Assembly: GCA_027492205.1 (NCBI GenBank)
Contig: JAOZFN010000014.1
Coordinates: 64,542-128,541 of the forward strand
DNA: 64,000 nucleotides
Origin: Thermoproteota archaeon
GTDB taxonomy: Archaea > Korarchaeota > Korarchaeia > Korarchaeales > Korarchaeaceae
Direction of reading: 5' to 3'
Shown: one piece after another, positions 4,772 to 60,373 of the stretch
Layout: every line of letters starts with the position of its first letter
How positions within the stretch are numbered: the first letter of the stretch is position 1
Notes under the pieces: model-generated
Told to the model about the DNA's origin: nothing
The model's database searches: none
What the model saw: the letters and a program-made list of their open reading frames with translations, nothing else
Translations under genes and position numbers: made by a program

Positions 4772-4780
4772 ACCCGGGCC

Positions 4781-10392: not shown

Positions 10393-10439
10393 AGTGCCCG
10401 TGGGGTTATAATGGGCGCCCGGGTGATTCACCGAGCCGT

Positions 10440-11381
10440 ATGGAGTACGTTAGGGACCTCGTCTGGAGGCCGGGAATGACCGTGAGGGAGCTGGTGGAGG
10501 GGTTCGCCGCCACGGGCTTTCAGAGCACGGAGCTCTACAAGGCCGCCCAGATAGTCGTGAGGATGAAGAGGGAGGGGGCGAAGGTCATCCTCACCTTCAC
10601 GTCCAACATGGGGACCTCGGGGCTGAGGGGCCTCTTCGCCCAGCTGATCGGGGTGGGCCTGGTTGATGTGGTGATAACAACCGTCGGCGCGATAGAGGAG
10701 GACGTGATGAAGGCCCTGGGCGAGAGGTTCTACATTCACCGGTTCCAGGCCGACGACGTGGAGCTCCACGAGAGGGGCATGAACAGGGTCGGCAACCTGC
10801 TGATCAGCAACGACAGCTACGCCAGGTTTGAGGCGTTCGCCACCCGGCTCCTCGAGGAGATCTACCGGGAGAAGAGGAGGCTCACCGTGTCGGAGCTCCT
10901 CCGGGAGATAGGCCTGAGGCTGGAGGACGAGAACTCCTTCCTCTACCAGGCGGCCAGGAGGGACGTACCGGTGTTCTGCCCCGCCATAACCGACGGCTCC
11001 TTCGGGTTTCACCTCTTCATGGCGAGGGAGAGGCACCCGGACTTCGACGTGGACGTGGTGGGGGACTTCGGTAGGATGATCCTGTACCTGAGCCAGGAGG
11101 ACAGGAAGGGCGTCATAGCCCTGGGCGGGGGAGTGTCGAAGCACCACGCGATCCTCATGACCCTCCTGAGCGGCGGCGCCGACTACGCGGTCTACATCAC
11201 CACCTCAACCCAGTTCTCGGGGAGCATGAGCGGCGCCACGACGTCGGAGGCCAAGAGCTGGGGAAAGATCAAGGACGACTCCGACTCCGTCACCGTGATA
11301 GGCGACGCGACCATCCTCTTCCCGCTGGTCGCCGCCTACTCCCTCGAGGTCCTGAGGGAGGAGGGGCTGATAGAGGCGTAG
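10440..11381 (+). CDS. dys: Deoxyhypusine synthase family protein
   Basis: GFQST, FTSNMGTSGLR, NRVGN, FCPAITDGS, GGGVSKHH and SGA..SEAKSWGK (active-site Lys); start re-called to ATG 10440. Confidence 0.92.
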   Translation: MEYVRDLVWRPGMTVRELVEGFAATGFQSTELYKAAQIVVRMKREGAKVILTFTSNMGTSGLRGLFAQLIGVGLVDVVITTVGAIEEDVMKALGERFYIHRFQADDVELHERGMNRVGNLLISNDSYARFEAFATRLLEEIYREKRRLTVSELLREIGLRLEDENSFLYQAARRDVPVFCPAITDGSFGFHLFMARERHPDFDVDVVGDFGRMILYLSQEDRKGVIALGGGVSKHHAILMTLLSGGADYAVYITTSTQFSGSMSGATTSEAKSWGKIKDDSDSVTVIGDATILFPLVAAYSLEVLREEGLIEA

Positions 11382-11410
11382 TCCGGTGAGGGAGGGAGAG
11401 GGTCGGGAGA

Positions 11411-12466
11411 ATGGCCAGGTTCATCCTGAGCAGGAGGGTGGCGCTGAGGCAGTACGAGACCGTGAAGAGGTACGTGGACGTCGTGGCCTACAGCTACAAG
11501 ACCAACCCGGCGGTCTGGGAGGTCCTCAGGGAGACCGACGCGATGGTGGGCCTGAGTTCGATGGGCTCGGCGAGGAGGGTTCGGGAGCTGAGCAGGGCGA
11601 TCTACTACCTGCAGGGGGAGTCCGAGGAGGAGGTCAGGTGGCTCCTCGACTCGGGCGTGGGGTGGCTCCTGGTGGACAACGAGCCCGAGCTCCGGGCGCT
11701 CCTCGGCGAACTGAGCAGGCTCGACCGCTCGGTCAACCTGCTCGTCAGGATGAAGATGAGGGAGCACACAGTCTACACGGGGAAGCACTTCGTCTACGGT
11801 ATCGACTGGAGGAGGGTGAGCGATCTGATACCAGAGCTGCGCGAGAACCCGCACGTCGAGTCTCTTGGGGTCCACTTCCACAGGAAGACCCAGAACGTGG
11901 GGGAGTGGAGCCTCGTCGAGGACCTCTCCGACGCGCTTGACGACCGCGCCATGGGAGAGCTGGACGCTGTGAACATAGGCGGCGGGATACCGGTGAGGTA
12001 CGCCAACTCCAGGCCGAACGTGGAGCTAGTCCTCGCCAAGGTGGGGGAGCTCAGGGACTTCCTCAGCGCCAGGGGGGTGAGGCTGATGGCCGAGCCGGGG
12101 AGGTTCATAGCTGCCCCCGCGGTGGCGCTGGAGGCCACGGTCCTGAACGTCTACTCCGGCACGGCCGTGCTGGACTGCTCCATCTTCAACGCCTACATGG
12201 ACACCTACCTCCTCAACACCAGGCTGCCCGTGCTGGGCGAGAGGGGGGACCGCTCGGGCCACAGGTACCTCCTCAAGGGGAGGTCGCCGGACTCCCTCGA
12301 CATCTTCCGCTACTCCGTCTACCTCGACAGGGAGCTGAGGCCGGGTGACAAGGTGGTCTTCCTGAACGCCGGGGCGTACAACTTCCACACCGACTTCAAC
12401 GACATGCCGAGGCTCGAGACCGATGTCGTGGAGGACTTCCCCTTCCCCGTTCCGGGGTGGCTGTGA
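11411..12466 (+). CDS. Fold-type III PLP-dependent decarboxylase (Orn/DAP/Arg family)
   Basis: YSYKTN (PLP Lys), HFH, NIGGG, EPGRF and NAGAY motifs. Confidence 0.88.
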   Translation: MARFILSRRVALRQYETVKRYVDVVAYSYKTNPAVWEVLRETDAMVGLSSMGSARRVRELSRAIYYLQGESEEEVRWLLDSGVGWLLVDNEPELRALLGELSRLDRSVNLLVRMKMREHTVYTGKHFVYGIDWRRVSDLIPELRENPHVESLGVHFHRKTQNVGEWSLVEDLSDALDDRAMGELDAVNIGGGIPVRYANSRPNVELVLAKVGELRDFLSARGVRLMAEPGRFIAAPAVALEATVLNVYSGTAVLDCSIFNAYMDTYLLNTRLPVLGERGDRSGHRYLLKGRSPDSLDIFRYSVYLDRELRPGDKVVFLNAGAYNFHTDFNDMPRLETDVVEDFPFPVPGWL

Positions 12467-27466: not shown

Positions 27467-27787
27467 CTAGGCGACTCTGACGCCCTTCCTCCTGGCCTCT
27501 TCTATCAGAGCCCTGTAAGTCTCGTTGTCGGCCACTATCAGGTCAAGCGGAACCCCCAGGTCTAAGAGGGCATCCACCTCGTCTCTGAGTAGCTCAAACA
27601 GGTCAACCTTCCCGAACTCCTTTGGAACCACTATCAGGTCCAGGTCGCTCTCGCCCCTGACCGCCGACCCATCGACGACCGATCCGAAGATGTACGCCTC
27701 CCTAACCCTGCCCCTGAGCTTCCTCCTCAGCGAGTCGATCACTCCCTCAAGGTCCCGGAGGGAGACCAGCCTCACATCCTCTGGCAC
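27467..27787 (-). CDS. Minimal nucleotidyltransferase
   Basis: IFGSVVDGSAVRGESDLD and LDLIV. Confidence 0.85.
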   Translation of the reverse strand: MPEDVRLVSLRDLEGVIDSLRRKLRGRVREAYIFGSVVDGSAVRGESDLDLIVVPKEFGKVDLFELLRDEVDALLDLGVPLDLIVADNETYRALIEEARRKGVRVA

Positions 27788-27788
27788 G

Positions 27789-28151
27789 CTACTCCCCCAC
27801 CTTGGCCAGGAGTTCCCTGTAGACCTCATCGATTCTATCTAGGTCCTCCTCCGAGATCGAGGGGACCACCCCGTAGTCTCCCCTCTCCCTCAGGGATTGT
27901 ATCCTCGCGATGGCCCTCACCAACCTCTCCTGCAGGCCCAGCCGCTCTCGCGACGCCCACATCCTAGAGATCAGGCTAGCGTGCGTCTTCGGGATCGGCT
28001 CGCCGTGCTTTAAGAGCAGGGCTCTTGACAGGTGCAGGATCGCATAATACCCTCGGGAGGCGGCGTCCTCCAAGAGCCCCTCGCGCCCGAGTATTGAAAA
28101 GGCCCTGTGAGCCTTCCGGGCCCTCTCAACGTGAAGTTCGTAGTCCTCCAA
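27789..28151 (-). CDS. HEPN domain protein
   Basis: AASRGYYA, PKTH and LRERGDY. Confidence 0.85.
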   Translation of the reverse strand: MEDYELHVERARKAHRAFSILGREGLLEDAASRGYYAILHLSRALLLKHGEPIPKTHASLISRMWASRERLGLQERLVRAIARIQSLRERGDYGVVPSISEEDLDRIDEVYRELLAKVGE

Positions 28152-28224: not shown

Positions 28225-31053
28225 TCAGCTCCGACCGGAACCTCGTCTCACCGTCTGCAGTCGCTCCGTCTCGATCACCCGCGTTTGAGTTTCCGGTGAG
28301 GCTTGGAGGCGCGCCTGCAGGCTGGTCCCGCGATCGGCACCCCCACGGGCCCCCACCGGGTGGACCCTCCCGACCCCCACGCCGGCTCTCCCTCCCGGCT
28401 CGTAGACCGGGCCCCACGGGTGCGTCCTCCAGGGGTCCCAGAGCCAGGCCAGCAGGAGGGACGCCATGAAGCCGCTCGTCGAGAGGATGGCGTGCTGCTT
28501 GCCTGTGGCGAACTGACCGACGGGGTTCCCCTCGTACCAGAAGTACCTGGACCCGTAGAGGAACTGCTGCAGGGCGACCTGCAGGTAGGTCTGGTTGCCC
28601 GAGTACTCCCAGGCGTAGACGAAGGCGTCGCTTATCACAAGCATCCAGGCGTTGGCCCCGCCTCCGGGCGACCAGTCGCTGACCCTGCCGTCGCCCCACC
28701 ACCTGTAGACGAAGTGGGGCCCGGAGAAGGCGTCGTCTCCCACGCGGTGGTAGGCGTACCTGAGCATCCACCTCGCGTACCCCAGCAGGGAGCTCTTGGC
28801 GGCCTGGTCCGTCCTCCCTCTGGTCCACCTGATCAGGTCCAGGTACTCCCCCAGCGCCACCATGAGCATGGCCTGCTGCCAGGGGGCCACGGACCTGCCG
28901 GCCATCCCCTCCGAGGGCCCGGAGGCGTACCACCTGCGGTCGAAGTGGGACTCCTCGACCACCCTCCCCGCCGCCTGGAGGAACCTCTCATCCCACGTGG
29001 CCTGGTAAGCCGCCAAAAGGATCATTAGGGCGTTGGCCGGGGCCCTGGCCTCGTCGCCCGTGGTCCCGCTGTATCCCGGCTCACCGGGGCCGTTCGTCAC
29101 CCTCCAGTAGGCGTTCTCCGACAGCTCCATCGCGGCCTCCCAGGCGGGGCGGTAGCCTGTCAGGTAGTAGTACAGGAAGAGGCCCCTCGCGAACTGAAAC
29201 TCGAGGCTTGGAGAGGACCCCCTGTGGGGGTTCTCCAGCCCGGGCTCCCCGTGGGGGGTGTGCCAGAACATGCCTCCCCAGCTCCACCTGATCCAGTAGG
29301 AGGAGGGCTGGGATGGGTCGCCCCAGTGGACGTGGAGCACGTCCATGTCTGCGGTGTGCCTGGCCGCCTGCTCTCCCAGCAGCCACCACCTCCGCGAGTT
29401 CACGTCGTCCCCTCCCAGCAGCCTGAGGCTCTGGACCAGCATCCCGTACTCGAAGTCGTACTGCAGGTTGCTCTGGCCGGTCCCGCCGTCCTCGTCCACC
29501 ACCCTCACGTCCCCGAAGTGCATCCACCCGTAGAAGTCCACCCTCTCCCTGGCGTCGAAGAGGTTGTCCGCGTACGGGCCGGCAGTCCCGTTCACGGCCG
29601 CCAGGTTGTTCAGCTCGTAGCACGTCAGCCAGGGGTTCAGGGGCTGGTAGGGGGGCCACCTCTCGTACAGCCCGTACTCCAGGTAGAGCTCCGCCGGGGC
29701 CCTGGCCTGCATGGGGTCCATCAGGCCCACGACCTCCCGGGCGCGCCCCTCGGTGAACCGGCCGGGGTGGAAGTTCAGGACGAGCTCGTGGGTCTTCCTC
29801 TCCCCGGCCCTGTGCTCGAAGGGCGCAGAGAACTGAGTCGGCATGAGGCCCACCCGGACCTGCCCGGAGGGGAGGAGCTCGATCGAACTCGGGTAGCTCT
29901 CCCAGAAGTACCTCTTGCCGACCGTCAGGCCGAAGCCCTCGTATGACAGGTCGGCCCAGCCCTCCGACCTGTTCCCGCGGTGCAGATCCCTCTCCCCCAC
30001 CCTCACCACGTACCCCCTGAAGCTGACCCCGGGCCACCTGTCCCAGTCCGGCCCGCCGCTCGAGTCCTGGTAGAGCAGCGCGGCGCCGGTCAGGTCGCCC
30101 CGCAGGATCCGTCCATCCGCGGGGACGGCGTAGGATGGGTCAGGCCCGCGGGTGAGGTTCAGCCTCAGCTCCACACCCTCGAACCTAACGGAGTTCGGGG
30201 ACCCCAGCCTGAGGCAGTTAGGCTGCCCCGAGCCGTCGTTAAGACAGGGGAGCACGTTCTCCTCCGCGTAGTAGACTCTGAGGTAGCTCTTCCAGGCGAA
30301 GGCGTGGATCCTGAGCGTGTAGTTCAGGAGGGTGCCGCCCGCCGGGCTGACGTGCGATCCCCTGACCAGGATCGAGACCCTCAGCGGCCCGGCCTCCTCC
30401 ACCTCAACCACCCTTCCCCCGAGGCCGGCCAGGTACTCCCCTCCGTCCTCCCCGACCACGACCACGTCTCCCCCTTCGGCCACTTCAGCCTCGGGGAAGC
30501 CGTCCCCGTCGAGGTCGAGGCGGAAGGGTCCGAGCAGGGGGGAGCCGCTCCTCCCCACCTCGAAGCTCAGCGGGCCGGTGCGGACGATCAGGGCGTCGCC
30601 CAGGTCCTCGACCTCCAGGGGGGTGTCCACCCCCCGTGGTTGGGCGCCGGCCTCGAGATAGTAGGTGGACTCTCCTCCAGCCTCGACGTCGGCCTGGAGA
30701 TCCACGAGGACCCACCTCAGGCTCCCGTCGGCCCACCTGGCCAGCACGCTGAACTGGGCCGGAACCTCGAGCGCCGATCCTTCCAGCAGCCGCAACTCAT
30801 CCACGTCCCAGGCCACCCCGGGCGGGAGGGGGACGCCCGACGACACGGGCTCCCCGCGCCTGTCCCATGGGAGCCAGTTCCTCACGGTCAGGGGGATCGC
30901 GTGGACGGGGCCCAAAACCTGCTTGGACGTCGGGCCGACGCACGCGGCCCCGGCGCGTAGGGGCGGCGATCCCCCCGGTGAGGCCTGGGGGACCAGGAGA
31001 AGGATCAGGGCGCCGGCGGAGAGGAGGCGGGACCTCACCTCACCATCCCACAC
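28225..31053 (-). CDS. Large secreted protein, PL26/YetA exo-rhamnogalacturonan-lyase-like
   Basis: Signal peptide; EPVSSGVPLPPG...VPAQFSVLARWADGSLRWVLVD N-terminal barrel; EEAGPLR; YGWMHFGD and NLQYD preceding a helical barrel. Confidence 0.7.
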   Translation of the reverse strand: MWDGEVRSRLLSAGALILLLVPQASPGGSPPLRAGAACVGPTSKQVLGPVHAIPLTVRNWLPWDRRGEPVSSGVPLPPGVAWDVDELRLLEGSALEVPAQFSVLARWADGSLRWVLVDLQADVEAGGESTYYLEAGAQPRGVDTPLEVEDLGDALIVRTGPLSFEVGRSGSPLLGPFRLDLDGDGFPEAEVAEGGDVVVVGEDGGEYLAGLGGRVVEVEEAGPLRVSILVRGSHVSPAGGTLLNYTLRIHAFAWKSYLRVYYAEENVLPCLNDGSGQPNCLRLGSPNSVRFEGVELRLNLTRGPDPSYAVPADGRILRGDLTGAALLYQDSSGGPDWDRWPGVSFRGYVVRVGERDLHRGNRSEGWADLSYEGFGLTVGKRYFWESYPSSIELLPSGQVRVGLMPTQFSAPFEHRAGERKTHELVLNFHPGRFTEGRAREVVGLMDPMQARAPAELYLEYGLYERWPPYQPLNPWLTCYELNNLAAVNGTAGPYADNLFDARERVDFYGWMHFGDVRVVDEDGGTGQSNLQYDFEYGMLVQSLRLLGGDDVNSRRWWLLGEQAARHTADMDVLHVHWGDPSQPSSYWIRWSWGGMFWHTPHGEPGLENPHRGSSPSLEFQFARGLFLYYYLTGYRPAWEAAMELSENAYWRVTNGPGEPGYSGTTGDEARAPANALMILLAAYQATWDERFLQAAGRVVEESHFDRRWYASGPSEGMAGRSVAPWQQAMLMVALGEYLDLIRWTRGRTDQAAKSSLLGYARWMLRYAYHRVGDDAFSGPHFVYRWWGDGRVSDWSPGGGANAWMLVISDAFVYAWEYSGNQTYLQVALQQFLYGSRYFWYEGNPVGQFATGKQHAILSTSGFMASLLLAWLWDPWRTHPWGPVYEPGGRAGVGVGRVHPVGARGGADRGTSLQARLQASPETQTRVIETERLQTVRRGSGRS

Positions 31054-34866: not shown

Positions 34867-35103
34867 GTGGGGACCATAGTCAGGATGGATCGGCAGGGCA
34901 GGGTGCTGATCCCCGCGAAGGTGAGGAGGCGGGTCGGATCGAGGCTGTTCGTGTTGGAGGAGACTGGGGGCGTGATAGTGCTCAGGCCCATTAAGGCGGT
35001 GAGGCCGTCAGACCTGTTTGACGCCATTGAGATTGACGTTGATCGGTTCACCGACTCACACGAGCTGAGGAGGGCCGTCCATGAGCGAGGTAACGTTCAT
35101 TGA
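34867..35103 (+). CDS. vapB: AbrB/MazE-type antitoxin
   Basis: MDRQGRVLIPAKVRR. Confidence 0.85.
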   Translation: MGTIVRMDRQGRVLIPAKVRRRVGSRLFVLEETGGVIVLRPIKAVRPSDLFDAIEIDVDRFTDSHELRRAVHERGNVH

Positions 35104-35506
35104 CTCAAGCGTCTTTCTCCACGCGTACCTAAGACCCAGGAGGGAGATGAGACCAGAAGAGGTCAAGGTCAAGGAGGAGGCGAAGGGGATACTCCTCAGG
35201 GTTGAGGCCGGCGAGCGGGTCGCCACCACCGTCGTGCACCTTAGCGAGATAGCCAACATAGTCGAGTCAAGGGTCGGCCTCGCCGAGAGCGTGGGCCTGA
35301 TGGCCTGGCTTCTGTCAGCGGGGAACGTCGAGGTCCTCCCCGTGAGCCGGAGCGACTACGCGGCGGCCGTGTCCGTGGCCAAGCGGCGTGGTGTTAGCGT
35401 TAACGACGCCCTTGCATACGTGAAGATGCTTGAGCTGGGTATCAGGAGGGCGTACAGCTTTGATCGCCACTTCAGGAGGTTCGAGGACATTGAAGTTCAA
35501 CCCTGA
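35081..35506 (+). CDS. vapC: PIN-domain toxin
   Basis: FIDSSVF, SVNDAL and YSFDRHF. Confidence 0.9.
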   Translation: MSEVTFIDSSVFLHAYLRPRREMRPEEVKVKEEAKGILLRVEAGERVATTVVHLSEIANIVESRVGLAESVGLMAWLLSAGNVEVLPVSRSDYAAAVSVAKRRGVSVNDALAYVKMLELGIRRAYSFDRHFRRFEDIEVQP

Positions 35507-35658
35507 GGCCCCCCGCTGATCGGCCTCGCCGCGTCAGACCCTCCCCTCTGCCGCCGGCGCCTCCCAGCACACTCAGCCCGCTTGAAATGGGGTTGAGGGG
35601 CGAGGGGACCAGCGACCGTTTAATACCTCTCCCACGTCTCAGCTGCCTGAGCGTCCGC

Positions 35659-36039
35659 ATGTCGGAGTGGATCTCGAGGGGGAGGGTCTTCCTCTCTGAG
35701 GCGCGAGAGAACTTGGGTGAGGGGCACTACTGGCTTGCCTGCTTCAACGCTCACCAGGCCGCCGAGTTTCACCTGAAGGGCCTCCTCGTCTCTCTCACCG
35801 GGATCTACCCCTTCTCGCACGACCTAGTCGAGCTGCTGCGCGCCGCCGAGTCGCTTGACCTCTCGGCGCCTCCCGAGGTCTTGGAGGCCGCGGACGCCCT
35901 CACGCCCCACTACACCATGGCCAGGTACCCCGGCCGGACCCCTGGGCGGTACGACAGGGAGAGGGCAGAGAGGTGCATCTCTTATGCCGAGAGGATCGTC
36001 GAGTGGGTTGAGAAGGCTCTTGAGGAGCGAGGCCGATAG
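35659..36039 (+). CDS. HEPN domain protein
   Basis: ACFNAHQAAEFHLK, SHDL and YTMARYP. Confidence 0.88.
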   Translation: MSEWISRGRVFLSEARENLGEGHYWLACFNAHQAAEFHLKGLLVSLTGIYPFSHDLVELLRAAESLDLSAPPEVLEAADALTPHYTMARYPGRTPGRYDRERAERCISYAERIVEWVEKALEERGR

Positions 36040-36391
36040 GCTCAGGCGCCAGCCACTCCTCTTCAGGGAGTTCGTCGAGAGGCTCAGGCGCCGGCGTCCA
36101 CGATCGACGATTCTCCTGTTTGGCTCTAGGGCGAGGGGGGAGGCGCGGGCGGCGAGTGACTACGATGTGGCGATAATTCTGCCGGACCCGGATCCCCTGG
36201 AGGAGGCGATCTGGGCTAGGAAGGCGAGGCCGAGGGGTCTGAGGGCCGACATAGTCGTGCTGGATGTCCGCCAGCTGGAGGACCCGGTGTACGCGCGGAT
36301 GCTGGACGGGGCCGTAGTTCTACACGACGGGCTCAACCTGTTCGGGAAGGGCCGCCGCGCATCTAGGGGGGGACTCTGCTCTGGCTCCTAG
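36008..36391 (+). CDS. Minimal nucleotidyltransferase
   Basis: LFGSRARGEARAASDYD; overlaps the HEPN gene. Confidence 0.85.
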   Translation: MRRLLRSEADRLRRQPLLFREFVERLRRRRPRSTILLFGSRARGEARAASDYDVAIILPDPDPLEEAIWARKARPRGLRADIVVLDVRQLEDPVYARMLDGAVVLHDGLNLFGKGRRASRGGLCSGS

Positions 36392-39093: not shown

Positions 39094-39348
39094 ATGGTAA
39101 GACTCAAGGTGAAGGTCGGGCCGAAGGGCCAGATAATCATTCCGAAGGTGCTGAGGAAGAAGTACGGGATAAGGGAGTATGACCAGGTCTTATTGGAGCT
39201 TAGAGAAGACGAGATAGCCATCAGAGGTCCCAGGAGCATTGAGGAGACCCTGAGGTGGATCAGAGAGAGGAGGGGGAAGGTGGGGGGGAGCGAGGCCAGG
39301 CTGGGTGACCTGGCCGACGTGGACCTGGAGGGGGAGTTCGAGGATTGA
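39094..39348 (+). CDS. vapB: AbrB/MazE-type antitoxin
   Basis: KVGPKGQIIIPKVLRKKYGI. Confidence 0.9.
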   Translation: MVRLKVKVGPKGQIIIPKVLRKKYGIREYDQVLLELREDEIAIRGPRSIEETLRWIRERRGKVGGSEARLGDLADVDLEGEFED

Positions 39349-39746
39349 GGGTGCTGGTCGACGCCAGCCTCATCGTGTACCTCAACGTGAGGATGCCTGA
39401 CGACGAGGCCAAGCTCGTCGAAGATTTCTGGGAGGATCTGCTCAGGGACCACGAGCTCTTCACAAATCTGCTGGCGCTGGACGAGGCCATATACGTATCT
39501 GAGAGGAAGTACGGCGTCCCTTTTAGTGAGACCCTCGAGCTCATCGACAGAGCGGTGCTTCCCCACGTTGAGGTGCTTCCGCTGAGCCTGGAGAGCTACC
39601 TGGAAGCCAAGAAGTACATGGTCAGGCACGGCCTGAAGCCCTCCGACTCGATCCACGCGGCGACCGTGGAGGTGTTTGGGCTACAGGCGATAGCCAGCGA
39701 GGACAGGGATTTCGACAAGATCGACATCAAGAGGCTCTGGTTATGA
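39345..39746 (+). CDS. vapC: PIN-domain toxin
   Basis: LVDAS, LDE, PSDSIH and SEDRDFD. Confidence 0.9.
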   Translation: MRVLVDASLIVYLNVRMPDDEAKLVEDFWEDLLRDHELFTNLLALDEAIYVSERKYGVPFSETLELIDRAVLPHVEVLPLSLESYLEAKKYMVRHGLKPSDSIHAATVEVFGLQAIASEDRDFDKIDIKRLWL

Positions 39747-39769
39747 ATTTTAGCCTTGAAAGGAGGTCA

Positions 39770-39912
39770 GGGTAATACGGAGGGCGTCTAGAGAAGACCT
39801 CGTTGACCTAGACCATGAGCGGCCTGCCCCCCTTCTGGATGTCCAGCCTATCCATCACCCCTCTTGGTTACGACGATCCCGCCCCTATCGTCCACCACTA
39901 CCTCGATCACGT
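39770..39912 (-). pseudogene. Inverted AbrB antitoxin remnant
   Basis: The minus strand reads VIEVVVDDRGGIVVTK and then loses frame. Confidence 0.45.
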
Positions 39913-40142
39913 CCAAGAGGCTGGCAGAGGTCAGGGAGGCCGTCGGAATAGAGGAGGGCGATGAGGTCATCGTCGAGATCGGCGACGGGATAACCCTCAG
40001 GCCAGTCAGGAGGTTCGACAGAGAGAAGCTGAAGGAGGCGCTCAGGAGGCACCTAGACAGGCTGAGCGGGATAGAGGGCCTCAGGGAGCCCAGGCCGGGA
40101 GAGCTCGCGTCCGCCTACCTGGAGGAGGAGTTCGAGAGTTGA
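39864..40142 (+). CDS. vapB: AbrB-type antitoxin, N-terminus probably replaced
   Basis: EVREAVGIEEGDEVIVE...YLEEEFES, paralogous to 39094..39348. Confidence 0.6.
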   Translation: MVTTIPPLSSTTTSITSKRLAEVREAVGIEEGDEVIVEIGDGITLRPVRRFDREKLKEALRRHLDRLSGIEGLREPRPGELASAYLEEEFES

Positions 40143-45338: not shown

Positions 45339-46376
45339 TCACACGCCGGGATCTCCGCTCATTGTGAGCGCCATGACCGCCATCTTCGCGTAGAGGTTGT
45401 CCTCCGCCTGCTCGTAGATGACGGAGTTGGGTCCGTCCATGACCTCGTCGGTCGCCTCCTCGCCCCTGAACACCGGCAGCACGTGGGTCACGATGGCCCC
45501 GGGCTCCATCAGGTCGTCCACCAGCTCCTGGGTCAGCATCCAGTCCCTGTACTTCCTGTGGATGTCAAGCTCCCTCTCCAGGCCGAACTGAGACAGCCCA
45601 ACCTGCCCGAGCTGCCAGGTGTGCCAGCTCCTCGGAAAGACCGCGTGGGCTCCCTTCAGGGCCTCCTTGTAGTCGTTCACTATCTCGAAGCTCCCCCCGC
45701 TCTCTTTGGCGTTCTCCCTCACCCAGCCCATGATCTTGGGGTCGAGCTCGAACCCGGGCGGGTGCGCCAGCACCACGTCCATCCCGAACCTGCTGGCTAT
45801 GAGCAGGTCGGCGTGTATGCTGCACGGGCCCCTGATCTTGGAGGCGTAGGCCCACATGACCACGAACTTCTTCCCCTGGAGCTTCTTGAGCTTCTCCCGC
45901 ATTACCATGATGTCGCCGAGGGCCTGGGTCGGGTGGAACATGTCGTCGGCCATGTTTATGACGGGCTTCTTCGCCACTCGGGCGAACTCCCTTATCACCG
46001 GGTTTCCCGTGCCGTACTTGAAGTCGATCACCTTGTCCAGGAGCCTAACGCCGATGCCGTGGGCGTAGATGTCGTACATCTTGGCGACGTCCTTCACGGC
46101 CTCCCCTGCACCGAGCCTGGTGGTGCTCACGTCCACGTAGACCCCGTGCCCGCCCAGGAGGGTGGCGCCCGCCTCGAACGCCCCCCTGGTTCTGGTGGAG
46201 GGCGCGAAGAAGACCATGAAGAAGTTCTTGTTCTTCAGGACGGGCGGAAACTCCCTGCCCGCCCTACCGATCTGCTTGTACCTCGCGGCGACCCTCAGGG
46301 CCTCCTCGATCTCGTCCATCGTCCACTCCTGAGTCGTGATAAGGTCCTTCATGTAGAGGTCGACCATGGGTTTCAC
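45339..46376 (-). CDS. Carbamoyltransferase of the OTC family, YgeW/AOTC-like clade
   Basis: PSTRTR and HPTQAL; WAY, PRSW and HVLP instead of the OTC SMG and HCLP motifs. Confidence 0.85.
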   Translation of the reverse strand: MKPMVDLYMKDLITTQEWTMDEIEEALRVAARYKQIGRAGREFPPVLKNKNFFMVFFAPSTRTRGAFEAGATLLGGHGVYVDVSTTRLGAGEAVKDVAKMYDIYAHGIGVRLLDKVIDFKYGTGNPVIREFARVAKKPVINMADDMFHPTQALGDIMVMREKLKKLQGKKFVVMWAYASKIRGPCSIHADLLIASRFGMDVVLAHPPGFELDPKIMGWVRENAKESGGSFEIVNDYKEALKGAHAVFPRSWHTWQLGQVGLSQFGLERELDIHRKYRDWMLTQELVDDLMEPGAIVTHVLPVFRGEEATDEVMDGPNSVIYEQAEDNLYAKMAVMALTMSGDPGV

Positions 46377-46518: not shown

Positions 46519-47823
46519 TCACAGCCCGAGGACCTGCGCGTATCCCTGGAGGTCCAGGAGACCGTGGCCGGAGTAGTTGAAGAGTATTACGTCCTCCCTG
46601 CCCTCTCTCTTCGCCCTCAGGGCCTCCTCCACCGCGGCCTTGACCGCGTGGGCCGTCTCCGGCGCGGGTATCAGTCCCTCGGTCATCGCGAAGATCCTAG
46701 CGGCCTCAAAGACCTCCTCCTGCGGATACGCCACGGCCTCGATCACCCCCTTCCTCTTCAGGAGCGAGACCGTGGGGGCGGCCCCGTGGTACCTCAGCCC
46801 GCCGGCGTGTATCGGCGGAGGGACGAAGTCGTGGCCGAGGGTGTACATCATTATGAGAGGGGTCGTGCCCGCGGCGTCTCCGAAGTCGTACCTGTACTCC
46901 CCCTCCGTGAGCGAGGGGGAGGCCGTGGGCTCAGCGGCTATGACCCTGTAGCTCGCCCTGCCCTCCAAGATCTCCCTGATGAACGGGAACGTCAGGCCGG
47001 CGAAGTTGCTCCCCCCTCCGACGCAGCCTATCAGCACGTCAACATCCTCTCCGGCGAGCTCCATCTGCCTCCTGGCCTCCTCGCCTATCACCGTCTGGTG
47101 CAGGAGCACGTGGTGGAGGACGCTTCCAAGCGAGTACTTCGCCCGGTCGTCGGACATAGCGGCCTCTATGGCCTCGCTTATCGCTATCCCCAGCGAGCCG
47201 GGGTGCTCCGGGTCCTCCTCCAGGAACCGCCTGCCCGCCTGGGTCCTGTCGCTCGGTGATGGAACCACCTCTGCCCCGTAGAGCTTCATGACGTACTTCC
47301 TGTAGGGCTTCTGGTTGTAGGAGACCCTGACCATGAACACCAGGGCCCTTATCCCGTTCAGCGCCGTCGCCAGCGACAGGGCGGAGCCCCACTGCCCCGC
47401 GCCGGTCTCGGTGGTGAGGTACTCTAGCCCCTCCCTCGCCGCGTAGAACGCCTGGGCTAGGGCCGTGTTCAGCTTGTGGCTCCCCGTGGGGCTGAGGTCC
47501 TCCCTCTTGTAGTAGATCCTGGCCGGGGTCCTGAGGTACCGCTCCAGCCTCCTTGCCCTGTAGATCGGCGTTGGCCTCCCTATCCTCACGTAGAGCTCCC
47601 TGAGCTCCCCCGGTATGTCGATGAACCTCTCCCTGGAGAACTCCTGCCTCACGCACTCTCTTGGGAAGAGGGGCTCGAAGGCCTCCGGACCTAGCGGCTC
47701 CCTGGTCGCAGGGTGGACGTAGGGCGGCAGGTCCGGGAGATCCGCCGTTACGTTGTACCACCTCTTTGGGAGCTCCTCCTGGGGAAGATCTATCCTGTCG
47801 GACGGGGTTCCACCCGAGCTCAT
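46519..47823 (-). CDS. trpB2: Tryptophan synthase beta chain type 2 (TrpB2)
   Basis: [52 protein letters not shown] and SGHGLLD. Confidence 0.95.
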
Positions 47824-48281
47824 GTCCCATCACGCTCCCTCGGCAGAGATAGGAGGTCGCGGAGAGGCACGTCCACCTCCGGCAGGTCGATCGGTAAGAC
47901 GTGCCTGGTGGTCTTCGGTGGGAGCAGCCTCCCAGACGCCGCGGTGACCCTAACGAGTCCCTTTGAGACCGGTACGTCGAGCCTCCTGGGCCTCACTTCC
48001 ACTTCCGGCGAGGAGTAGTTCACCAGCGCCGCCGGGACGGCCCTCGCGCCGAGTGACCGGAGCGCGGCCAGCCTGTGGTGGCCGTCCAGCAGGGCCCCCG
48101 TCTGTCGATCCACGAGCACGGGGACCCTGAGGACTCCGTCCTCCAAGATCTCGCGACCGAGGCGGCGCCTTCTGGCGGGAATGGTCATCTCATGGGGTCT
48201 CAGTGTGGACACCGGGACCAGAGAGACGTCGACGGACAGGTCCCCGGACGTGAGAGACCTGATTAGAGGGGTTGCCCTCAA
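47820..48281 (-). CDS. ParB/Srx-fold protein, SerK/SbnI-like free serine kinase candidate
   Basis: LRPHE, LLDGHHR and LPPKTTRH motifs; its stop overlaps the trpB2 start (ATGA). Confidence 0.75.
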
Positions 48282-48554
48282 CTCCGGGCGGGCGGGCCTA
48301 CTCGCGCGACCAAACTAGATCCCCCACATTCCATCCCTCCCTTGGGGGTTGGCCGGGGCGGCGGCCGCGAGCTAATAAGGGTTGCCCTGGGTCGGACGTT
48401 CACGTCGGTTATAAACGGTCTATGGACCGTTTTCGGGGCAAAGAAGGGTCCGCTGCCGAGGCCTCGGAGCCGGAGGGCCGCGATCGTCGAAGGAAACCTT
48501 AAGTTTATCCGCCCGCCGTCGAACCCTTACCCAATACAGGCTGTGGTGATACCC

Positions 48555-49157
48555 ATGCCCAGGACCGTGTGGGATAGGGAGCCGGGCGAGATCCGCAGGC
48601 CCGGCACGATTCACATAGCCATCATGGCCCTGTTGATAGGAGTGGGCGCGGTGGCCGGCACCTTCGGTAGCCTATCGGTGCCGCTGGGATACGGCGTCAC
48701 CGGCTTCTGGCCTGGCGTCGCCGTTCAGGCCGTCGGCGGCATCTGGTTCGGCATGTGGGGAGTGATAGCGGGCTTCCTGTTCCCGTTCATCTCCAACTCC
48801 CTCGCCGGCGCCCCGCTGTACGTGAGCTTCGCCTACCTGCCATCCAACCTGATCCAGGGCCTGCTCCCTGCCTGGGCCTTCAGGTACTTCAAGGCCGACC
48901 CGAGCCTGAAGAGCGGGCGCGACTGGATCCTCTTCCTCGTCTTCGGCGTCATCGTCAACAACATCCTAGGCGCGGCCTGGGCCGTGACCGCCCTGCAGTG
49001 GTTCGGCCTCATCACCGTCGAGTCCGTCCCGCTGTTCTTCTCCGGGTGGACCATCGGAAACGGAGTGCCTGCCCTGATATTCGGCGCCATCCTGCTGAAG
49101 GCGCTCTCGCCGCTGGTTGTGAAGCACAGGTCCTTCGTCAAGGGCTGGTGGGCCTGA
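48555..49157 (+). CDS. ECF transporter substrate-specific (S) component
   Basis: Hydrophobic about 200-aa protein with GIWFGMWG; first gene of the ecfT-ecfA-ecfA' operon. Confidence 0.65.
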   Translation: MPRTVWDREPGEIRRPGTIHIAIMALLIGVGAVAGTFGSLSVPLGYGVTGFWPGVAVQAVGGIWFGMWGVIAGFLFPFISNSLAGAPLYVSFAYLPSNLIQGLLPAWAFRYFKADPSLKSGRDWILFLVFGVIVNNILGAAWAVTALQWFGLITVESVPLFFSGWTIGNGVPALIFGAILLKALSPLVVKHRSFVKGWWA

Positions 49158-49174
49158 GGGCCCCACCCTCCAAC

Positions 49175-49180
49175 TTTTTT
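49175..49180 (+). terminator. T-tract after the S-component gene
   Basis: CCCCACCCTCCAACTTTTTT. Confidence 0.45.
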
Positions 49181-49223
49181 GGACCCGACGGCGATTGGGA
49201 GTCAGTGGAGAGAGTGAGATGAG

Positions 49224-50075
49224 ATGCCCACCAAGATGAGGAGGTCCCTGCTGGGGTATCTCCCGGTAGACTCGCCCATCTTCAGCCTGCACCCGATGAC
49301 CAGGCTCCTCTTCCTGCTGATAGTCAGCGCCTACCCCATGATAGTGAGGCTGCCGGAGCTGAACGTCGCCGGCTCGATATTCATGCTCGCGCTGTTCAAG
49401 GTCTCGAAGGTGGACCTCAGGGTGATCAAGAACTACAAGATGGCCTTCGTCAACCTGTTCTTCGTCATAGCCATCGCCTACACGTTCTTCGGGGGCTACA
49501 ACCCGGACTACAGGGTGCTGATCAAGCTTGGGCCGGTGAAGGTGTGCTGGGAGAACCTGAGGTGGGCCACGGTGGTGTACATCCAGCTGATCTTCGCCAT
49601 CCTGATCATGATCTTCTTCCTCAGCACCATGAGGGAGAGGGACATAGTGGTGGGGCTCAGGGCCCTCAGGGTGCCCTTCGTGCTGGCCTACATGGCCGGC
49701 CTGGCCCTCAGGTCGATTGGCCTCTCGATAATAGACTTCAACACGATAAGGGAGGCCGAGAAGGCACGGGCTCTCGACCTGCAGGCCCTCCCCTTCTCCG
49801 AGAAGGTGAAGAAGTTCGGCATGTACATAGTGCCGCTGGTCGCGCTCGCCATAAGGAGGTCGGACGAGGTGTCCAACGCCCTCGACTCCAGGGGGTTCAG
49901 GTTCACGGGGCTGAGGTCTGGCAGGAGGACCGACTACATCCTGTCCAAGTACAGGATGACCAGGCTCGACTACGCGGTCTTGGCCGGAATGGGTGTGTTC
50001 CTCGCTGGAATCGTACTGATCAGCGTCTACACCGACTGGCTCGCGCTGGAGAACTCCCTCCTCTACCGGATATGA
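49224..50075 (+). CDS. ecfT: ECF transporter transmembrane component T
   Basis: LHPMTRL, AEKARA and ALDSRGF (XRX motifs). Confidence 0.9.
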   Translation: MPTKMRRSLLGYLPVDSPIFSLHPMTRLLFLLIVSAYPMIVRLPELNVAGSIFMLALFKVSKVDLRVIKNYKMAFVNLFFVIAIAYTFFGGYNPDYRVLIKLGPVKVCWENLRWATVVYIQLIFAILIMIFFLSTMRERDIVVGLRALRVPFVLAYMAGLALRSIGLSIIDFNTIREAEKARALDLQALPFSEKVKKFGMYIVPLVALAIRRSDEVSNALDSRGFRFTGLRSGRRTDYILSKYRMTRLDYAVLAGMGVFLAGIVLISVYTDWLALENSLLYRI

Positions 50076-50076
50076 G

Positions 50077-50946
50077 GTGATGGGGTTGGCGGAGCCGGTC
50101 ATCAGGGTCGAGGGGCTGAAGTGGAAGTACGAGGGCTCTAGGGACTGGGTCCTGAGGGGCGTGGACCTGGAGATCCACCAGGGGGAGTTCGTCGGAATAG
50201 TGGGCCCAAACGACTCCGGCAAGACGACCCTGGCCATGAGCCTGAACGGCCTCGTGCCCAACAACTACCCCGGCGTGATGGAGGGCCGGGTCGTCGTGGA
50301 CGGGATGGACACCAGGGAGCACTCCGTCGCCGAGATAGCCGAGAGCGTGGGCTTCGTGTTCCCGGACCCGGAGAGCCAGTTCCTCTCGATGACGGTCGAG
50401 GAGGAGGTCGTCTTCGCCCTCGAGAACCGGGGGTTCCCGAGGGAGGAGATAGAGGAGAGGATGTGGTGGGCCTTAGAACTCACGAACATCCCGGAGGACT
50501 ACCTGGAGAAGCCCCCCTACGAGCTCAGCGGCGGGGAGAAGCAGAGGGTGGCCATAGCGAGCGTGCTGGCCATGAGGCCAAAGATAATCGTGCTGGACGA
50601 GCCGACCTCCATGCTGGACCCGATAGGCAAGACCGAGGTGATAGAGGTCCTGACGGAGATGAAGAGGAGGTACAACGCCACCGTGATCGTCATAGAGCAC
50701 CGGCTTGAGGACATCGCCCCCCTGGCGGACAAGATGGTCCTGGTCTACCGCGGGACGATACCGAAGGTCGCCCCGCCGAGGGAGTTCTTCCAGGACGTCG
50801 ACTTCCTGCTGGAGCACGACGTTTTCCCGCCGGACGTGATGGTGCTGGTCAACGAGCTGAGGAGGCGCGGGCTGTACGACGGCCCGGTGCCCATGACCGT
50901 GGACGAGGCCGAGGGCGTAGTGAGGGAGATCCTGGGGAGGAGGTGA
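50077..50946 (+). CDS. ecfA: ECF transporter ATPase
   Basis: GPNDSGKTT, FPDPESQ, LSGGEKQR and LDEPTSMLDP. Confidence 0.92.
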   Translation: MMGLAEPVIRVEGLKWKYEGSRDWVLRGVDLEIHQGEFVGIVGPNDSGKTTLAMSLNGLVPNNYPGVMEGRVVVDGMDTREHSVAEIAESVGFVFPDPESQFLSMTVEEEVVFALENRGFPREEIEERMWWALELTNIPEDYLEKPPYELSGGEKQRVAIASVLAMRPKIIVLDEPTSMLDPIGKTEVIEVLTEMKRRYNATVIVIEHRLEDIAPLADKMVLVYRGTIPKVAPPREFFQDVDFLLEHDVFPPDVMVLVNELRRRGLYDGPVPMTVDEAEGVVREILGRR

Positions 50947-51788
50947 CGGGCGTGGGAGAGGCCGTAAGGGTGGATCACATCAGCTACGTGTACCCCGACG
51001 GGACCGTGGGGCTGAAGGAGGCCACGCTCACGATACAGGAGGGCGAGTTCCTTGCGTTCATAGGCCAGAATGGCTCCGGGAAGACCACGCTGAGCAAGAA
51101 CATCTCCGGCCTGCTCAAGCCCACCACCGGGGACGTCTGGGTTTTCGGGAGGAACACCAGGGAGGCTCCAATGTCCGAGCTGGCGACCCTCGTGGGGTAC
51201 ATCTTCCAGAACCCGGACCACCAGCTGTTCAACCAGACCGTGTACGACGAGATAGCCTACGGCCCGAGGAACCTGAAGCTCCCGGAGGAGGAGGTCGAGG
51301 AGCGCGTGACGGAGGCCATGAGGATCGTCGGATTGGACGAGTCTTACAGGGAGGAGCACCCGTTCTTCCTGAGCAAGGGGCTCAGGCAGAGGGTCGCGAT
51401 AGCCAGCATACTCGCCATGAGGCCGAGGGTCATCATAGTGGACGAGCCCACCACGGGGCAGGACTTCAAGCAGTCAATCGACATCATGGACTTCCTGACG
51501 ATGCTGAACAGGGAGCACGGGCACACGATCATCATAATCACCCACGACATGCCCATCGTGGCCAAGTACGCGGAGAGGACCGTCGCCATGGCCGACGGCA
51601 GGATTCTGCTGGACGGCCCCACGAGGGAGGTCTTCGCCCAGGCCGAGGTGCTGGCCCGGGCCAACATCAAGCCGCCGCAGATAACGAGGCTGGCTCAGAG
51701 GCTCGGAGATCTGGGGATACCTCCCAACGTCCTATCCATCGAGGAGATGGCGGATCTGATTGAGTCGGCCGTGAAGGGGGGGAGTTGA
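50943..51788 (+). CDS. ecfA: ECF transporter ATPase (second)
   Basis: GQNGSGKTT, FQNPDHQLF, LSKG and DEPTTGQD. Confidence 0.92.
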   Translation: MTGVGEAVRVDHISYVYPDGTVGLKEATLTIQEGEFLAFIGQNGSGKTTLSKNISGLLKPTTGDVWVFGRNTREAPMSELATLVGYIFQNPDHQLFNQTVYDEIAYGPRNLKLPEEEVEERVTEAMRIVGLDESYREEHPFFLSKGLRQRVAIASILAMRPRVIIVDEPTTGQDFKQSIDIMDFLTMLNREHGHTIIIITHDMPIVAKYAERTVAMADGRILLDGPTREVFAQAEVLARANIKPPQITRLAQRLGDLGIPPNVLSIEEMADLIESAVKGGS

Positions 51789-58605: not shown

Positions 58606-59778
58606 TCATTTGTAGACGTGCGCGCCTCCCTTGGGCATCATCTCCGTAGATCCGCCCCTCTCGGGGGAACCCCGGGCGCCCCGCATCCGAAGGTTGAGGG
58701 CCGCGGCCTCGTCCCTGTCGACGATCAGCCCGCAGCCCTCGCACCGCATGAGCCTGCCCCGATAGGCCAGCAATCGGCCTGAGCACACGGGGCAGGTCCT
58801 GGAGGAGTAGGCGGGGTTCACGAATTGCACGGGGAGGCCCAGCCACCTGGCCTTGTAGGCCAGCATGAACTGAAGCGTGCGAGCGTCCCACTTGCTGAGC
58901 CTCCGCCTGATCTCCCTCCTGCTGGCCCTCCCTCTCCTGGCAGTCCTCTCCTTTATGCCGCTCAGGTCCTCCAAGACGATCCCGTAGTTCAGCGAGGCCA
59001 GCTCCCTGACTATCCTGGTGGTCAGCTTGTGGAGGAAGTCCCTGACCCTGTTCCTCTCTCTTTTACTGTACTTCTCCATCAGCCTCCTGGACCTCCTCGG
59101 GTGGGTCCTCCTGAGCGCCTGTATCCTCCGGCGCTTCTCCTCGTAGACCCTGTGGATGTGGTAAAGTTCCCTTAAGTCGTACCTGATCACTCCGGATCTG
59201 TCCCTCGCCTCCGTCACGTTCGCCTCGTTCACGTCGAAGGCCGACCACCCCCTGACTTCCTTCTTCGGCTCTGCAGAGCGCTTGAACGTGATGTAGAGCC
59301 TGTCGTCCGTCATCAGCAGGCCGCCGATGGAGTCGTAGTCCCTGGGCAGGTGGTCGAACCCCGACAGGTCCACCTCTAGGTAGCGCCTCCTGGCCACTAC
59401 CCTGATGATCAGCTTGTTCTCCTTGACCCTGAACAGCGTGCTCTTGATGTAGACCATCCTCCTCGTTATCTCCGGTGGTCTCTTCGCCTTGCCCCTGTTG
59501 TGCAGCTTTATCCAACCCTTCACCAGGCCCATGACCGAGTTGATGGCGGAGTCGACGTAGTGGCTAGCGTAAGGCCAGTCCTTGAGCAGCTCTTTCCTGA
59601 TCTCGCGCCTCTCCCCGGCCCTCAGGCGGAGCCTGGCCTTTCCGCTAGGGCCGTAGGAGACGTGCGCCATCACAGCCTCCAGCGCCTTCCTCTTGACCTC
59701 TAGGTAGGCGTCTATGAGGTCTTTGGGAGCCTTTATGGGCACAGCGCAGCTCTTGATCGCCTCACTCCTCTGAGACAA
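58606..59778 (-). CDS. tnpB: TnpB RNA-guided endonuclease
   Basis: RuvC residues AFDVN, VLEDL and DRDEAAALNL; Zn finger SSRTCPVC...CEGC. Confidence 0.93.
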   Translation of the reverse strand: MSQRSEAIKSCAVPIKAPKDLIDAYLEVKRKALEAVMAHVSYGPSGKARLRLRAGERREIRKELLKDWPYASHYVDSAINSVMGLVKGWIKLHNRGKAKRPPEITRRMVYIKSTLFRVKENKLIIRVVARRRYLEVDLSGFDHLPRDYDSIGGLLMTDDRLYITFKRSAEPKKEVRGWSAFDVNEANVTEARDRSGVIRYDLRELYHIHRVYEEKRRRIQALRRTHPRRSRRLMEKYSKRERNRVRDFLHKLTTRIVRELASLNYGIVLEDLSGIKERTARRGRASRREIRRRLSKWDARTLQFMLAYKARWLGLPVQFVNPAYSSRTCPVCSGRLLAYRGRLMRCEGCGLIVDRDEAAALNLRMRGARGSPERGGSTEMMPKGGAHVYK

Positions 59779-60373
59779 GCTCCCTCACCCCCTGAACGAG
59801 CCTCCTGTACCTGTGGCTCCTCCTGCCGTAGAGCCTGCCAGCGAAGTGGGCTACTATCGCTATGAGATCCTCCACGAGCTCCTCCCTGGGAGCCCTCTCC
59901 CTCTCGTTGATCACCTCTATCTCAGCGCCGAACGCTTGGAAGAGCCTCCTCAGCGTCGAGAAGCCGAACCTGGTCAGCCTGTCCGGGTAAGTGACTATCA
60001 CCCTGCTGACTCTGCGCTCAGCGACCATGTCCAGCAGCCTCAAGTAGCCTCTACGCCGCTCGTTCAGCCCAGAGCCAACGTCAGTTATCACCTCGGCCAG
60101 CTCGTAGCCCCTCCGACTTGCGTGCTCCCCTATGGCCTGAACCTGCCTCTCCAGGTCATCCCTCTGAGACCTAGAGGACACCCTGGCGTAGCCCACCACA
60201 ACCCGTTCCTCGCTCAAACCGAGTACCCTCCTTATCTCCGACTCTGGAACCCTCCTCCTGCCACCCGGAGTGCGGATGCACCTGATCTTGCCTGATTTAT
60301 CCCACCGCTGGATCGTTCTGACTGAGACGCCCAGGATCTTGGCCGCCTCTCTCATTGTGTAGTGTCGTTCCAT
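59762..60373 (-). CDS. tnpA: IS607 TnpA serine recombinase with MerR-like HTH
   Basis: EAAKILGVSVRTIQRW, YARVSS, DVGSG, DRLTRFGF and ELVEDL. Confidence 0.95.
   Translation of the reverse strand: MERHYTMREAAKILGVSVRTIQRWDKSGKIRCIRTPGGRRRVPESEIRRVLGLSEERVVVGYARVSSRSQRDDLERQVQAIGEHASRRGYELAEVITDVGSGLNERRRGYLRLLDMVAERRVSRVIVTYPDRLTRFGFSTLRRLFQAFGAEIEVINERERAPREELVEDLIAIVAHFAGRLYGRRSHRYRRLVQGVRELVSEE

Follow-up and report, generated by a model that had tools for sequence, protein, structure and literature searches.

SbnI of Staphylococcus is a free serine kinase and a regulator of staphyloferrin B synthesis, and supplies O-phosphoserine to the neighbouring enzyme SbnA. SerK, the ADP-dependent enzyme of Thermococcus kodakarensis (TK0378; Protein Data Bank (PDB) entry 5x0b), is described in the accessible text of Makino et al. 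(2016; PMC5120207) as serving cysteine synthesis and serine assimilation, with a pyridoxal phosphate (PLP)-dependent cysteine synthase as its partner and with homologues only in the Thermococcales and Desulfurococcales. TrpB2 enzymes also use O-phospho-L-serine, a point for which the available portion of a later paper (PMC11917138) cites Busch et al. 2014; in the accessible part of Merkl (2007; PMC1854888), an analysis of gene neighbourhoods revealed no second conserved one for trpB2 beyond the trp operons. Here, a locus was analysed in which these activities may be combined. In a 64-kb stretch of contig JAOZFN010000014.1 from a Thermoproteota archaeon (the whole stretch is referred to as the window), a gene for a 153-residue SerK-like protein, the mini protein, overlaps a trpB2 gene. 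The mini protein is probably a minimal free L-serine kinase whose O-phosphoserine is joined to indole by TrpB2.

Both genes lie on the minus strand. The mini gene (47820..48281) has a TTG start codon and encodes a ParB/sulfiredoxin (Srx)-fold core followed by a C-terminal PPKTTRH segment, while the trpB2 gene (46519..47823) encodes a 434-residue TrpB-like PLP enzyme with curated NCBIfam matches. A preliminary description of the locus, made from the sequence alone, had reported a motif-bearing open reading frame (ORF) of 153 codons that overlaps the trpB2 start; all of its positions and motifs were found again, with the TGA stop codon of the mini gene and the ATG start codon of trpB2 sharing an ATGA (47820..47823; tcat on the plus strand). 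Both ORFs look like genuine genes, having homologues, family matches and a codon-position GC pattern like that of other genes in the window (GC content at third and second codon positions, GC3 0.80 and GC2 0.50 for the mini gene, GC3 0.88 and GC2 0.47 for trpB2). The TTG is the sole ATG, GTG or TTG codon 5′ of the conserved core of the mini protein; the start remains uncertain, and a 96%-identical relative (locus L001) starts 7 codons further in, where the window lacks a start codon. The source names of the closest relatives are 'Candidatus Korarchaeota archaeon' and 'Thermoproteota archaeon'.

No Pfam family matched the mini protein at E≤0.01. The NCBIfam SerK model (NF053625) matched with an E-value of 9e-17, over profile positions 14-98 of 244 only, and the NCBIfam SbnI model (NF033589) with an E-value of 1e-6 (28 bits, under its cut-off of 350). 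Comparison with PDB sequences gave SerK 5x0b (E 3e-12) in two stretches: residues 16-96 of the mini protein corresponded to SerK 15-99, and residues 113-143 to SerK 211-241 ('pkttrhvlp'). SerK residues ~100-210 (~110 residues) had no counterpart in this alignment. When a profile built from 121 members of the mini family was compared by hhalign with P0102, a full-length SerK-like protein of 245 residues that scores 130 bits on the SerK model, the match had a probability of 99.9% and contained a single gap of ~104 residues, beyond which the C-terminal PKTTRH segment of the mini protein aligned with P0102 residues ~205-244.

An AlphaFold2 model of the mini protein, calculated with the family alignment, was compact (mean predicted local distance difference test score (pLDDT) 93.6, predicted TM-score (pTM) 0.87). 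Foldseek comparison of this model with the PDB returned SerK 5x0b as the top match (E 1.8e-9, query TM-score (TMq) 0.76). The top six matches were all of the SerK type, five SerK entries and the Pyrococcus furiosus homologue 1vk1 (E 2e-9 to 5e-8, TMq 0.70-0.76); three SbnI entries came next (6nr6, E 1.6e-7), and ParB N-domains and sulfiredoxins later (E≥1.6e-4), with the ParB structures matching over a core of ~85-110 residues only. The homology to SerK and SbnI that had been proposed earlier was thus borne out by NCBIfam, PDB sequence and Foldseek comparisons, all of which put SerK first (followed by SbnI in the Foldseek ranking), as was the absence of the central SerK insertion. Because of the SerK-first matches, the single-gap alignment and the fold, we read the mini protein, from its sequence and predicted structure, as the ParB/sulfiredoxin-fold core of SerK and SbnI minus one inserted domain of ~105 residues.

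The motifs that SerK and the mini protein have in common fall within this shared core fold and the C-terminal tail; SerK has ~242 residues and the mini protein 153. Residues 29-31 (P29 H30 E31; 48189..48197, minus strand) form the PHE motif, in which 'rphem' of the query aligned to 'kpheq' of SerK. E31 stands in the column of SerK Glu30, which is the one altered in the E30Q (5x0j) and E30A (5x0e) chains, and by this alignment it is the counterpart of the catalytic Glu. The DGHHR motif (residues 66-70; 48072..48086, minus strand), a ParB/Srx-type phosphate-binding box, is identical in SerK. The PPKTTRH motif (residues 121-127; 47901..47921, minus strand) is retained from the SerK C-terminal tail.

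SbnI (5uje, 5ujd, 6nr6) has the same fold and the same N-terminal motifs as the mini protein, but it has ~254 residues with an extra domain and matches more weakly (E 1e-6 to 1e-4); it serves a siderophore pathway, whereas the mini protein of the window is paired with a gene for tryptophan synthesis. Sulfiredoxin differs further. It acts on a protein cysteine sulfinic acid and has a catalytic Cys in its motif, in contrast to the DGHHR of the mini protein, which has no Cys, and the structural similarity was much lower (3cyi, 1xw4; E 3e-4, TMq 0.39). Sulfiredoxin on its own is an ATP-dependent phosphotransferase. Since it has the same fold in only ~100-110 residues, a core of this kind can catalyse phosphoryl transfer without extra domains.

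A canonical ParB combines a helix-turn-helix (HTH), a C-terminal dimerisation domain and a match to TIGR00180, a combination that the mini protein lacks; it gave no match to TIGR00180 (ParB), and Pfam detected no HTH or other DNA-binding domain in it. As had been expected of such a protein, its NCBI relatives are annotated as 'ParB N-terminal domain-containing protein' or 'transcriptional regulator'. The latter name, the NCBIfam description of SbnI as a bifunctional transcriptional regulator and O-phospho-L-serine synthase, and the statement in the available text of a 2025 survey of the ParB-CTPase fold (PMC12704722) that ParB-fold proteins are often nucleotide switches would all suit a non-catalytic ParB-type transcriptional regulator, or a nucleotide-sensing subunit, that controls trpB2 expression or TrpB2 activity. 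Such a role is highly improbable, given 153 residues with no DNA-binding domain by Pfam, a catalytic Glu and phosphate-binding motifs that are nearly invariant, and covalent fusions to enzymes (see below), which would be unusual for a transcription factor.

The mini protein belongs to a large family. A word-indexed search with its sequence found 161 homologues at E≤1e-3 (best match 96% identical, E 6e-80), mostly of 120-165 residues, and the named relatives came from Korarchaeota, Thermoproteota, Thermoplasmatota, Micrarchaeota, Bipolaricaulota and marine Euryarchaeota. A profile search of 1.84 billion cluster representatives returned 7155 proteins at E≤1e-3, 1957 at E≤1e-10 and 479 at E≤1e-30, and 131 of the best 150 representatives were shorter than 250 residues. 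The family extends over many archaeal and bacterial phyla, in contrast to the range reported for SerK. Among 121 aligned members, D66, G67, H68, H69, R70, Y89 and H127 were invariant (121/121), while L27, H30, E31, D58, L77, P83, K107, V110 and P121 to T125 were conserved in at least 90%. Six of the top-scoring representatives (P0244-P0249, 333-649 residues) contained two mini-profile stretches each and no Pfam domain, and could represent tandem duplications of the mini core or larger proteins assembled from it.

The second gene of the pair encodes a full member of the TrpB2 group by curated cut-offs. Its product exceeded the cut-offs of two models named 'TrpB-like PLP-dependent enzyme', NF009057 (690 bits; cut-off 366) and TIGR01415 (668 bits; cut-off 519), and its best PDB relatives were the TrpB2 entries 6hul_B, 4qys_B and 6hte_B (E 1e-152 to 1e-142). 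Lys117, in a GSHK motif (47473..47475, minus strand), is invariant in 119 TrpB2 sequences and aligned to the 'tgahk' of TrpB1 chains; we take it to be the lysine that forms the Schiff base with PLP. Arg344, in GGLRYHG (46792..46794, minus strand), is likewise invariant in the 119 sequences and is kept in 4qys, 6hul and 6hte, whereas TrpB1 enzymes, as in 1x1q and 5ey5, have Asp at the aligned position (GLDYPG). The 2014 work of Busch et al. is said to have found that the residue at this position, Arg or Asp, decides between use of O-phosphoserine and use of serine.

In agreement with the preliminary description, which had noted neither trpA nor any other trp gene in the window, Pfam scans of 61 window ORFs turned up neither a further trp-operon family nor SerA or SerC. 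None of the 55 ORFs flanking the pair in 11 trpB2 loci from other genomes matched a trp-operon family; the mini-trpB2 pair therefore lies outside trp operons. Other genes connected with tryptophan were present in some of these loci. A gene of the Trp-repressor family lies upstream of trpB2 in four of them (L048, L051, L059 and L075), although the L048 protein, at 49 bits on TIGR01321, is under the cut-off of 67 bits. In L051 and L059 the mini gene is followed immediately by trpS (TIGR00233, 268 and 313 bits, cut-off 177), and in L003 one tryptophanyl-tRNA synthetase gene is found 2.3 kb upstream on the other strand. Genes for 5-enolpyruvylshikimate-3-phosphate (EPSP) synthase, shikimate kinase and dehydroquinase lie downstream in L075.

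Gene neighbourhoods were compared in a collection of species-representative genomes. One scan, made with an alignment of 14 sequences, gave 211 relatives, of which the 80 best loci were taken together with their flanks (at most 6 kb per side). The matches in these loci, found by tblastn, spanned at most 164 codons, so that none has room for an insert of the SerK type. Clustering of 590 flanking ORFs gave TrpB2 as the commonest neighbour family. A trpB2 gene was directly adjacent on the same strand in 12 of the 80 loci, a gene for a CysK-like PLP enzyme was nearby in 13 and an SbnA-family gene in 2; in 14 further loci the contig was too short on one side. The trpB2-adjacent loci came from at least five phyla (Korarchaeia-type Thermoproteota, Patescibacteria, Micrarchaeota, Bacillota and Gammaproteobacteria) and had either of two gene orders. 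In four Thermoproteota metagenome-assembled genomes (MAGs; L001-L004, including two with the labels Kor2 and Kor3) the mini gene comes first, with the same 4-nt overlap as in the window in all four. The opposite order was found in five Patescibacteria of the Magasanikbacteria (L010, L048, L051, L059, L075), in a Symbiobacterium (L030), a micrarchaeote (L032) and a gammaproteobacterial MAG (L073). Spacing in six of these eight loci ranged from a 4-nt overlap to a 2-nt gap; L010 has an ambiguous mini start, so that its two genes may overlap or lie up to 4 nt apart, and in L032 the gap is ~120 nt.

The adjacency first seen in the window thus recurs, in both orders, and it was also found as a gene fusion. 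Protein P0150 (577 residues) is 47% identical to the window mini protein over its residues 29-144, and its remainder is 74% identical to the window TrpB2. The mini kinase gene is a second neighbourhood of trpB2 of the kind that had been missing. Mobile and toxin-antitoxin genes elsewhere in the window could have suggested that the adjacency is meaningless and that the mini ORF is a ParB-fold remnant or the leftover of a mobile element. This idea deserves next to no credence, because a trpB2 gene is adjacent in 12 of 80 loci, where chance would give ~1/1000 per locus by a rough, uncomputed estimate, and because 479 clusters match at E≤1e-30, the predicted fold is compact and of high confidence, and fusions exist. 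The recurring neighbourhoods, the P0150 fusion and the size of the family effectively refute it.

Genes for CysK-like enzymes were the other main group of neighbours. Their products are ~390-446 residues long, with an N-terminal extension of 100-155 residues. The gene is adjacent on the same strand in L008, L014, L021 and L064, one small OsmC-like gene away in L009, L012, L013 and L017, and adjacent but divergent in L020, L027 and L078; L011 has a fragment at the contig end, and in L043 the gene is 1.7 kb off on the other strand. Comparison of the L014 protein with the PDB gave as best match the 389-residue 1wkv/3vsa/5b36 ('cysteine synthase | Protein CysO', E 1e-75). We presume 1wkv/3vsa to be the O-phosphoserine sulfhydrylase (OPSS) of Aeropyrum pernix. 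This CysO-type enzyme is the closest solved relative of the L014 neighbour and is not encoded in the window; CysK-like neighbours of like kind occur in ten further loci. The accessible text of one paper (PMC11921379) cites Aeropyrum-type CysO as a consumer of O-phosphoserine. Such neighbours show that the mini kinase is not tied to a single kind of O-phosphoserine-using partner. In the four loci with an intervening gene (L009, L012, L013 and L017; Acidilobaceae- or Sulfolobales-type), that gene encodes ~121-125 residues (for example L012 6393-6755) with a weak OsmC-like Pfam match (E 7e-4), and all three genes overlap or abut.

The SbnA-family gene is directly adjacent in L069 (Xenorhabdus) and 1.3 kb away in L029 (Dyella); the proteins score 299 and 283 bits, respectively, on TIGR03945, under the 350-bit cut-off. 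Fusions to PLP enzymes extend beyond TrpB2. P0123 (433 residues) has a mini domain at ~8-135 (35% identity) followed by a complete CysK/M (TIGR01136, 401 bits, cut-off 344), and in the search of representatives P0250 and P0357 were each found to contain a mini domain and a PALP domain. Fusion partners at odds with the O-phosphoserine/PLP pattern also occur, namely domains of the hexapeptide-repeat type (P0318 and P0121, the latter gamma-carbonic-anhydrase/PaaY-like in NCBIfam), NTP_transferase (P0348) and NAD_binding_1 (P0366).

Several observations weigh against the assignment of the mini protein as a serine kinase that feeds TrpB2. It scores 61 bits on the NCBIfam SerK model, against an equivalog cut-off of 380 bits, and matches the N-terminal third of the profile only; the domain of ~105 residues that it lacks is common to SerK and SbnI. 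A SerK-like protein in the 2025 fold survey bound CTP and not ATP, according to the available text (PMC12704722), so that nucleotide use is not predictable in the ParB/SerK fold. No PLP gene of the three kinds was found within 3.5 kb in 39 of the 80 loci (flanks of at least 1.5 kb), and choosing the best 80 of 211 loci enriches for close relatives of the window protein. The P0150 fusion is known from one 4.2-kb contig, where a frameshift error over overlapping genes could mimic a fusion. In a tree of 86 mini domains (131 columns), the backbone was unresolved, with 39 of 83 inner branches open; the trpB2 neighbour corresponds to 6 changes on the tree, of which the supported branches force only 1, and multiple origins are not shown. 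The two gene orders and at least five phyla of the trpB2 association are accordingly suggestive only. One of the 39 loci with no partner, L005, has a divergent gene for an enzyme of the D-cysteine-desulfhydrase family.

Some of these observations would also fit a SerK-type kinase that acts on another substrate, either a different hydroxy-amino acid or a substrate bound to the PLP partner, with the partners using a different activated intermediate. The missing SerK domain could carry specificity determinants, the fusions of P0121, P0318, P0348 and P0366 join the mini domain to unrelated domains, and the 39 loci show no PLP partner nearby. We consider another substrate unlikely, since every motif common to SerK and the mini family is retained and since O-phosphoserine is the known or family-typical substrate of TrpB2, of the OPSS-like CysK and of the SbnA family. 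Three types of partner, two of them also found fused, that share this substrate, together with the conserved residues and fold of SerK, make phosphorylation of serine the most economical function.

On the proposed serine kinase function, the mini protein would phosphorylate the hydroxyl group of free serine with a nucleotide (ADP, ATP or other) as donor. Glu31 would serve as the base, DGHHR and PPKTTRH would hold the phosphates and the substrate, and the product would be O-phospho-L-serine. The overlapping trpB2 gene downstream is probably translationally coupled to the mini gene, and TrpB2 would condense O-phosphoserine with indole to give tryptophan. The pair could thereby turn serine and indole into tryptophan with neither trpA nor the SerA/SerC route to O-phosphoserine. 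Homology, fold, domain deletion, motifs, gene overlap, recurring neighbourhoods and fusions are observed; kinase activity, serine as the substrate, the donor nucleotide and the flow of O-phosphoserine to TrpB2 are what we infer from them. Because most members of the family are not beside trpB2, having CysK, SbnA or no PLP enzyme as a neighbour, the family as a whole would be a general supplier of O-phosphoserine and not specific to TrpB2.

The reaction might also run the other way, from O-phosphoserine and a nucleotide to serine, or the mini protein might serve general serine metabolism as SerK does, with no dedication to TrpB2. SerK has a part in serine assimilation (accessible text of PMC5120207), many mini family members stand alone, and a family with an SbnI-like fold has been proposed to replace phosphoserine phosphatase. 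The last proposal concerns SerBK (DUF1015; GapMind 2026, PMC13759103), which in the available text is likewise proposed to act on serine and O-phosphoserine. SerBK is, however, a different family for which that text reports no sequence similarity; its genes neighbour serA and serC, and its proposed direction is towards serine. The same text gives the reverse reaction as thermodynamically unfavourable. Overlap or fusion with consumers of O-phosphoserine fits supply and not removal, and no serA or serC occurred among the recurring neighbour clusters of the mini gene, so that a reverse or general role for the mini protein is distinctly unlikely.

A wider proposition, on which our judgement is evenly divided, is that mini-SerK proteins of ~125-165 residues are widespread unrecognised minimal free-serine kinases, forming a portable serine-activation module for TrpB2, OPSS-type CysK and SbnA, all of which are fold-type-II PLP enzymes. 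The mini-trpB2 pair would then be a complete route from serine and indole to tryptophan in Korarchaeia, small-genome Patescibacteria and Micrarchaeota, requiring neither trpA nor SerA/SerC; in some bacteria it forms a single run of genes with trpR-like and trpS genes. In a bolder extension, docking onto the PLP partner, of which the natural fusions are a hint, would replace the missing SerK domain and let O-phosphoserine pass straight to the partner. A predicted complex of TrpB2 and the mini protein, made with a separate alignment for each, had a score of 0.00 and a mark of 0.32, which bears neither way on binding.

The literature was compared with this proposal. The words tryptophan and TrpB do not appear in the accessible text of Makino et al. 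(PMC5120207), and the accessible text of the 2025 fold survey (PMC12704722) records archaeal proteins made of one very short domain, 'like sulfiredoxin', but speaks of neither PLP enzymes nor tryptophan. No paper linking TrpB2 or tryptophan synthase with a serine kinase was found, in a search whose coverage excluded subscription journals and supplements, and a functional guess exists in automatic names, with a few JGI records calling mini relatives 'L-serine kinase (ADP)'. This agrees with the earlier suggestion that the two-gene pathway had not been described. The minimal SerK architecture and the pairing with TrpB2 are the new parts. The mini protein departs from the SerK equivalog in domain content and in curated score, while it most likely works like SerK.

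The genes around the pair were also recorded. Downstream of trpB2, after 142 nt and on the same strand, comes a carbamoyltransferase gene of the ornithine/aspartate family (45339-46376, minus strand); its product is under every NCBIfam cut-off, the best match being N-acetylornithine carbamoyltransferase (220 bits against 288), and the gene is not conserved beside the mini-trpB2 pair in L002-L004. Upstream of the mini gene and divergent from it is a transporter module of the energy-coupling factor (ECF) type (48342-51788, plus strand), consisting of a membrane protein with a weak MASE1-like match only, a CbiQ/EcfT gene and two ATP-binding cassette (ABC) ATPase genes. In L002, an ECF-type module (3674-6235, minus strand) is convergent with the pair and downstream of it. 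The substrate component of the module, in the window and in L002, falls in no named family. The ECF transporter was rejected as a family-wide partner, as the 'ABC ATPase' cluster that recurred in 8 loci proved to be mixed, containing ECF modules in the window, L001 and L002 and an ABC-2 type exporter in L012, L013 and L017.

Further from the pair, an IS607-like gene pair (58606-60373, minus strand) consists of a serine recombinase with a MerR-type HTH (59762-60373) that overlaps a TnpB/Cas12f-like gene (58606-59778). Toxin-antitoxin-like genes lie at 27467-28151 (minus strand), 35081-36391 (plus strand) and 39094-40142 (plus strand). Two are pairs, one of a HEPN and a nucleotidyltransferase gene and one of a MazE-like antitoxin and a PIN gene (39094-39743). 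Further PIN and MazE-like genes start at 35081 and 39864, respectively, and there is another nucleotidyltransferase gene. At 9814-12466 (plus strand), a protoglobin-like gene is followed directly by a deoxyhypusine synthase gene and a gene for a PLP-dependent Orn/Arg-decarboxylase-like protein. A protein of 942 residues (28225-31053, minus strand) gave weak matches only, to a PcRGLX-like (rhamnogalacturonan-lyase-type) N-terminal domain.

The use of O-phosphoserine by TrpB2 was shown in 2014, while its physiological role and the source of the substrate stayed unclear. A dedicated kinase gene that overlaps trpB2 or is fused to it would, if the proposal is true, be the missing source of the substrate, and this can be tested with two proteins. 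A function would then be available for a large family that is now labelled 'ParB N-terminal domain-containing protein', and the range of free-serine kinases, now a few genera, would grow to include many phyla of archaea and bacteria. For the phosphorylation of small molecules, the ParB/sulfiredoxin core may be enough. If the proposal holds, predictions of tryptophan and cysteine auxotrophy would change in the metabolic reconstruction of uncultured lineages.

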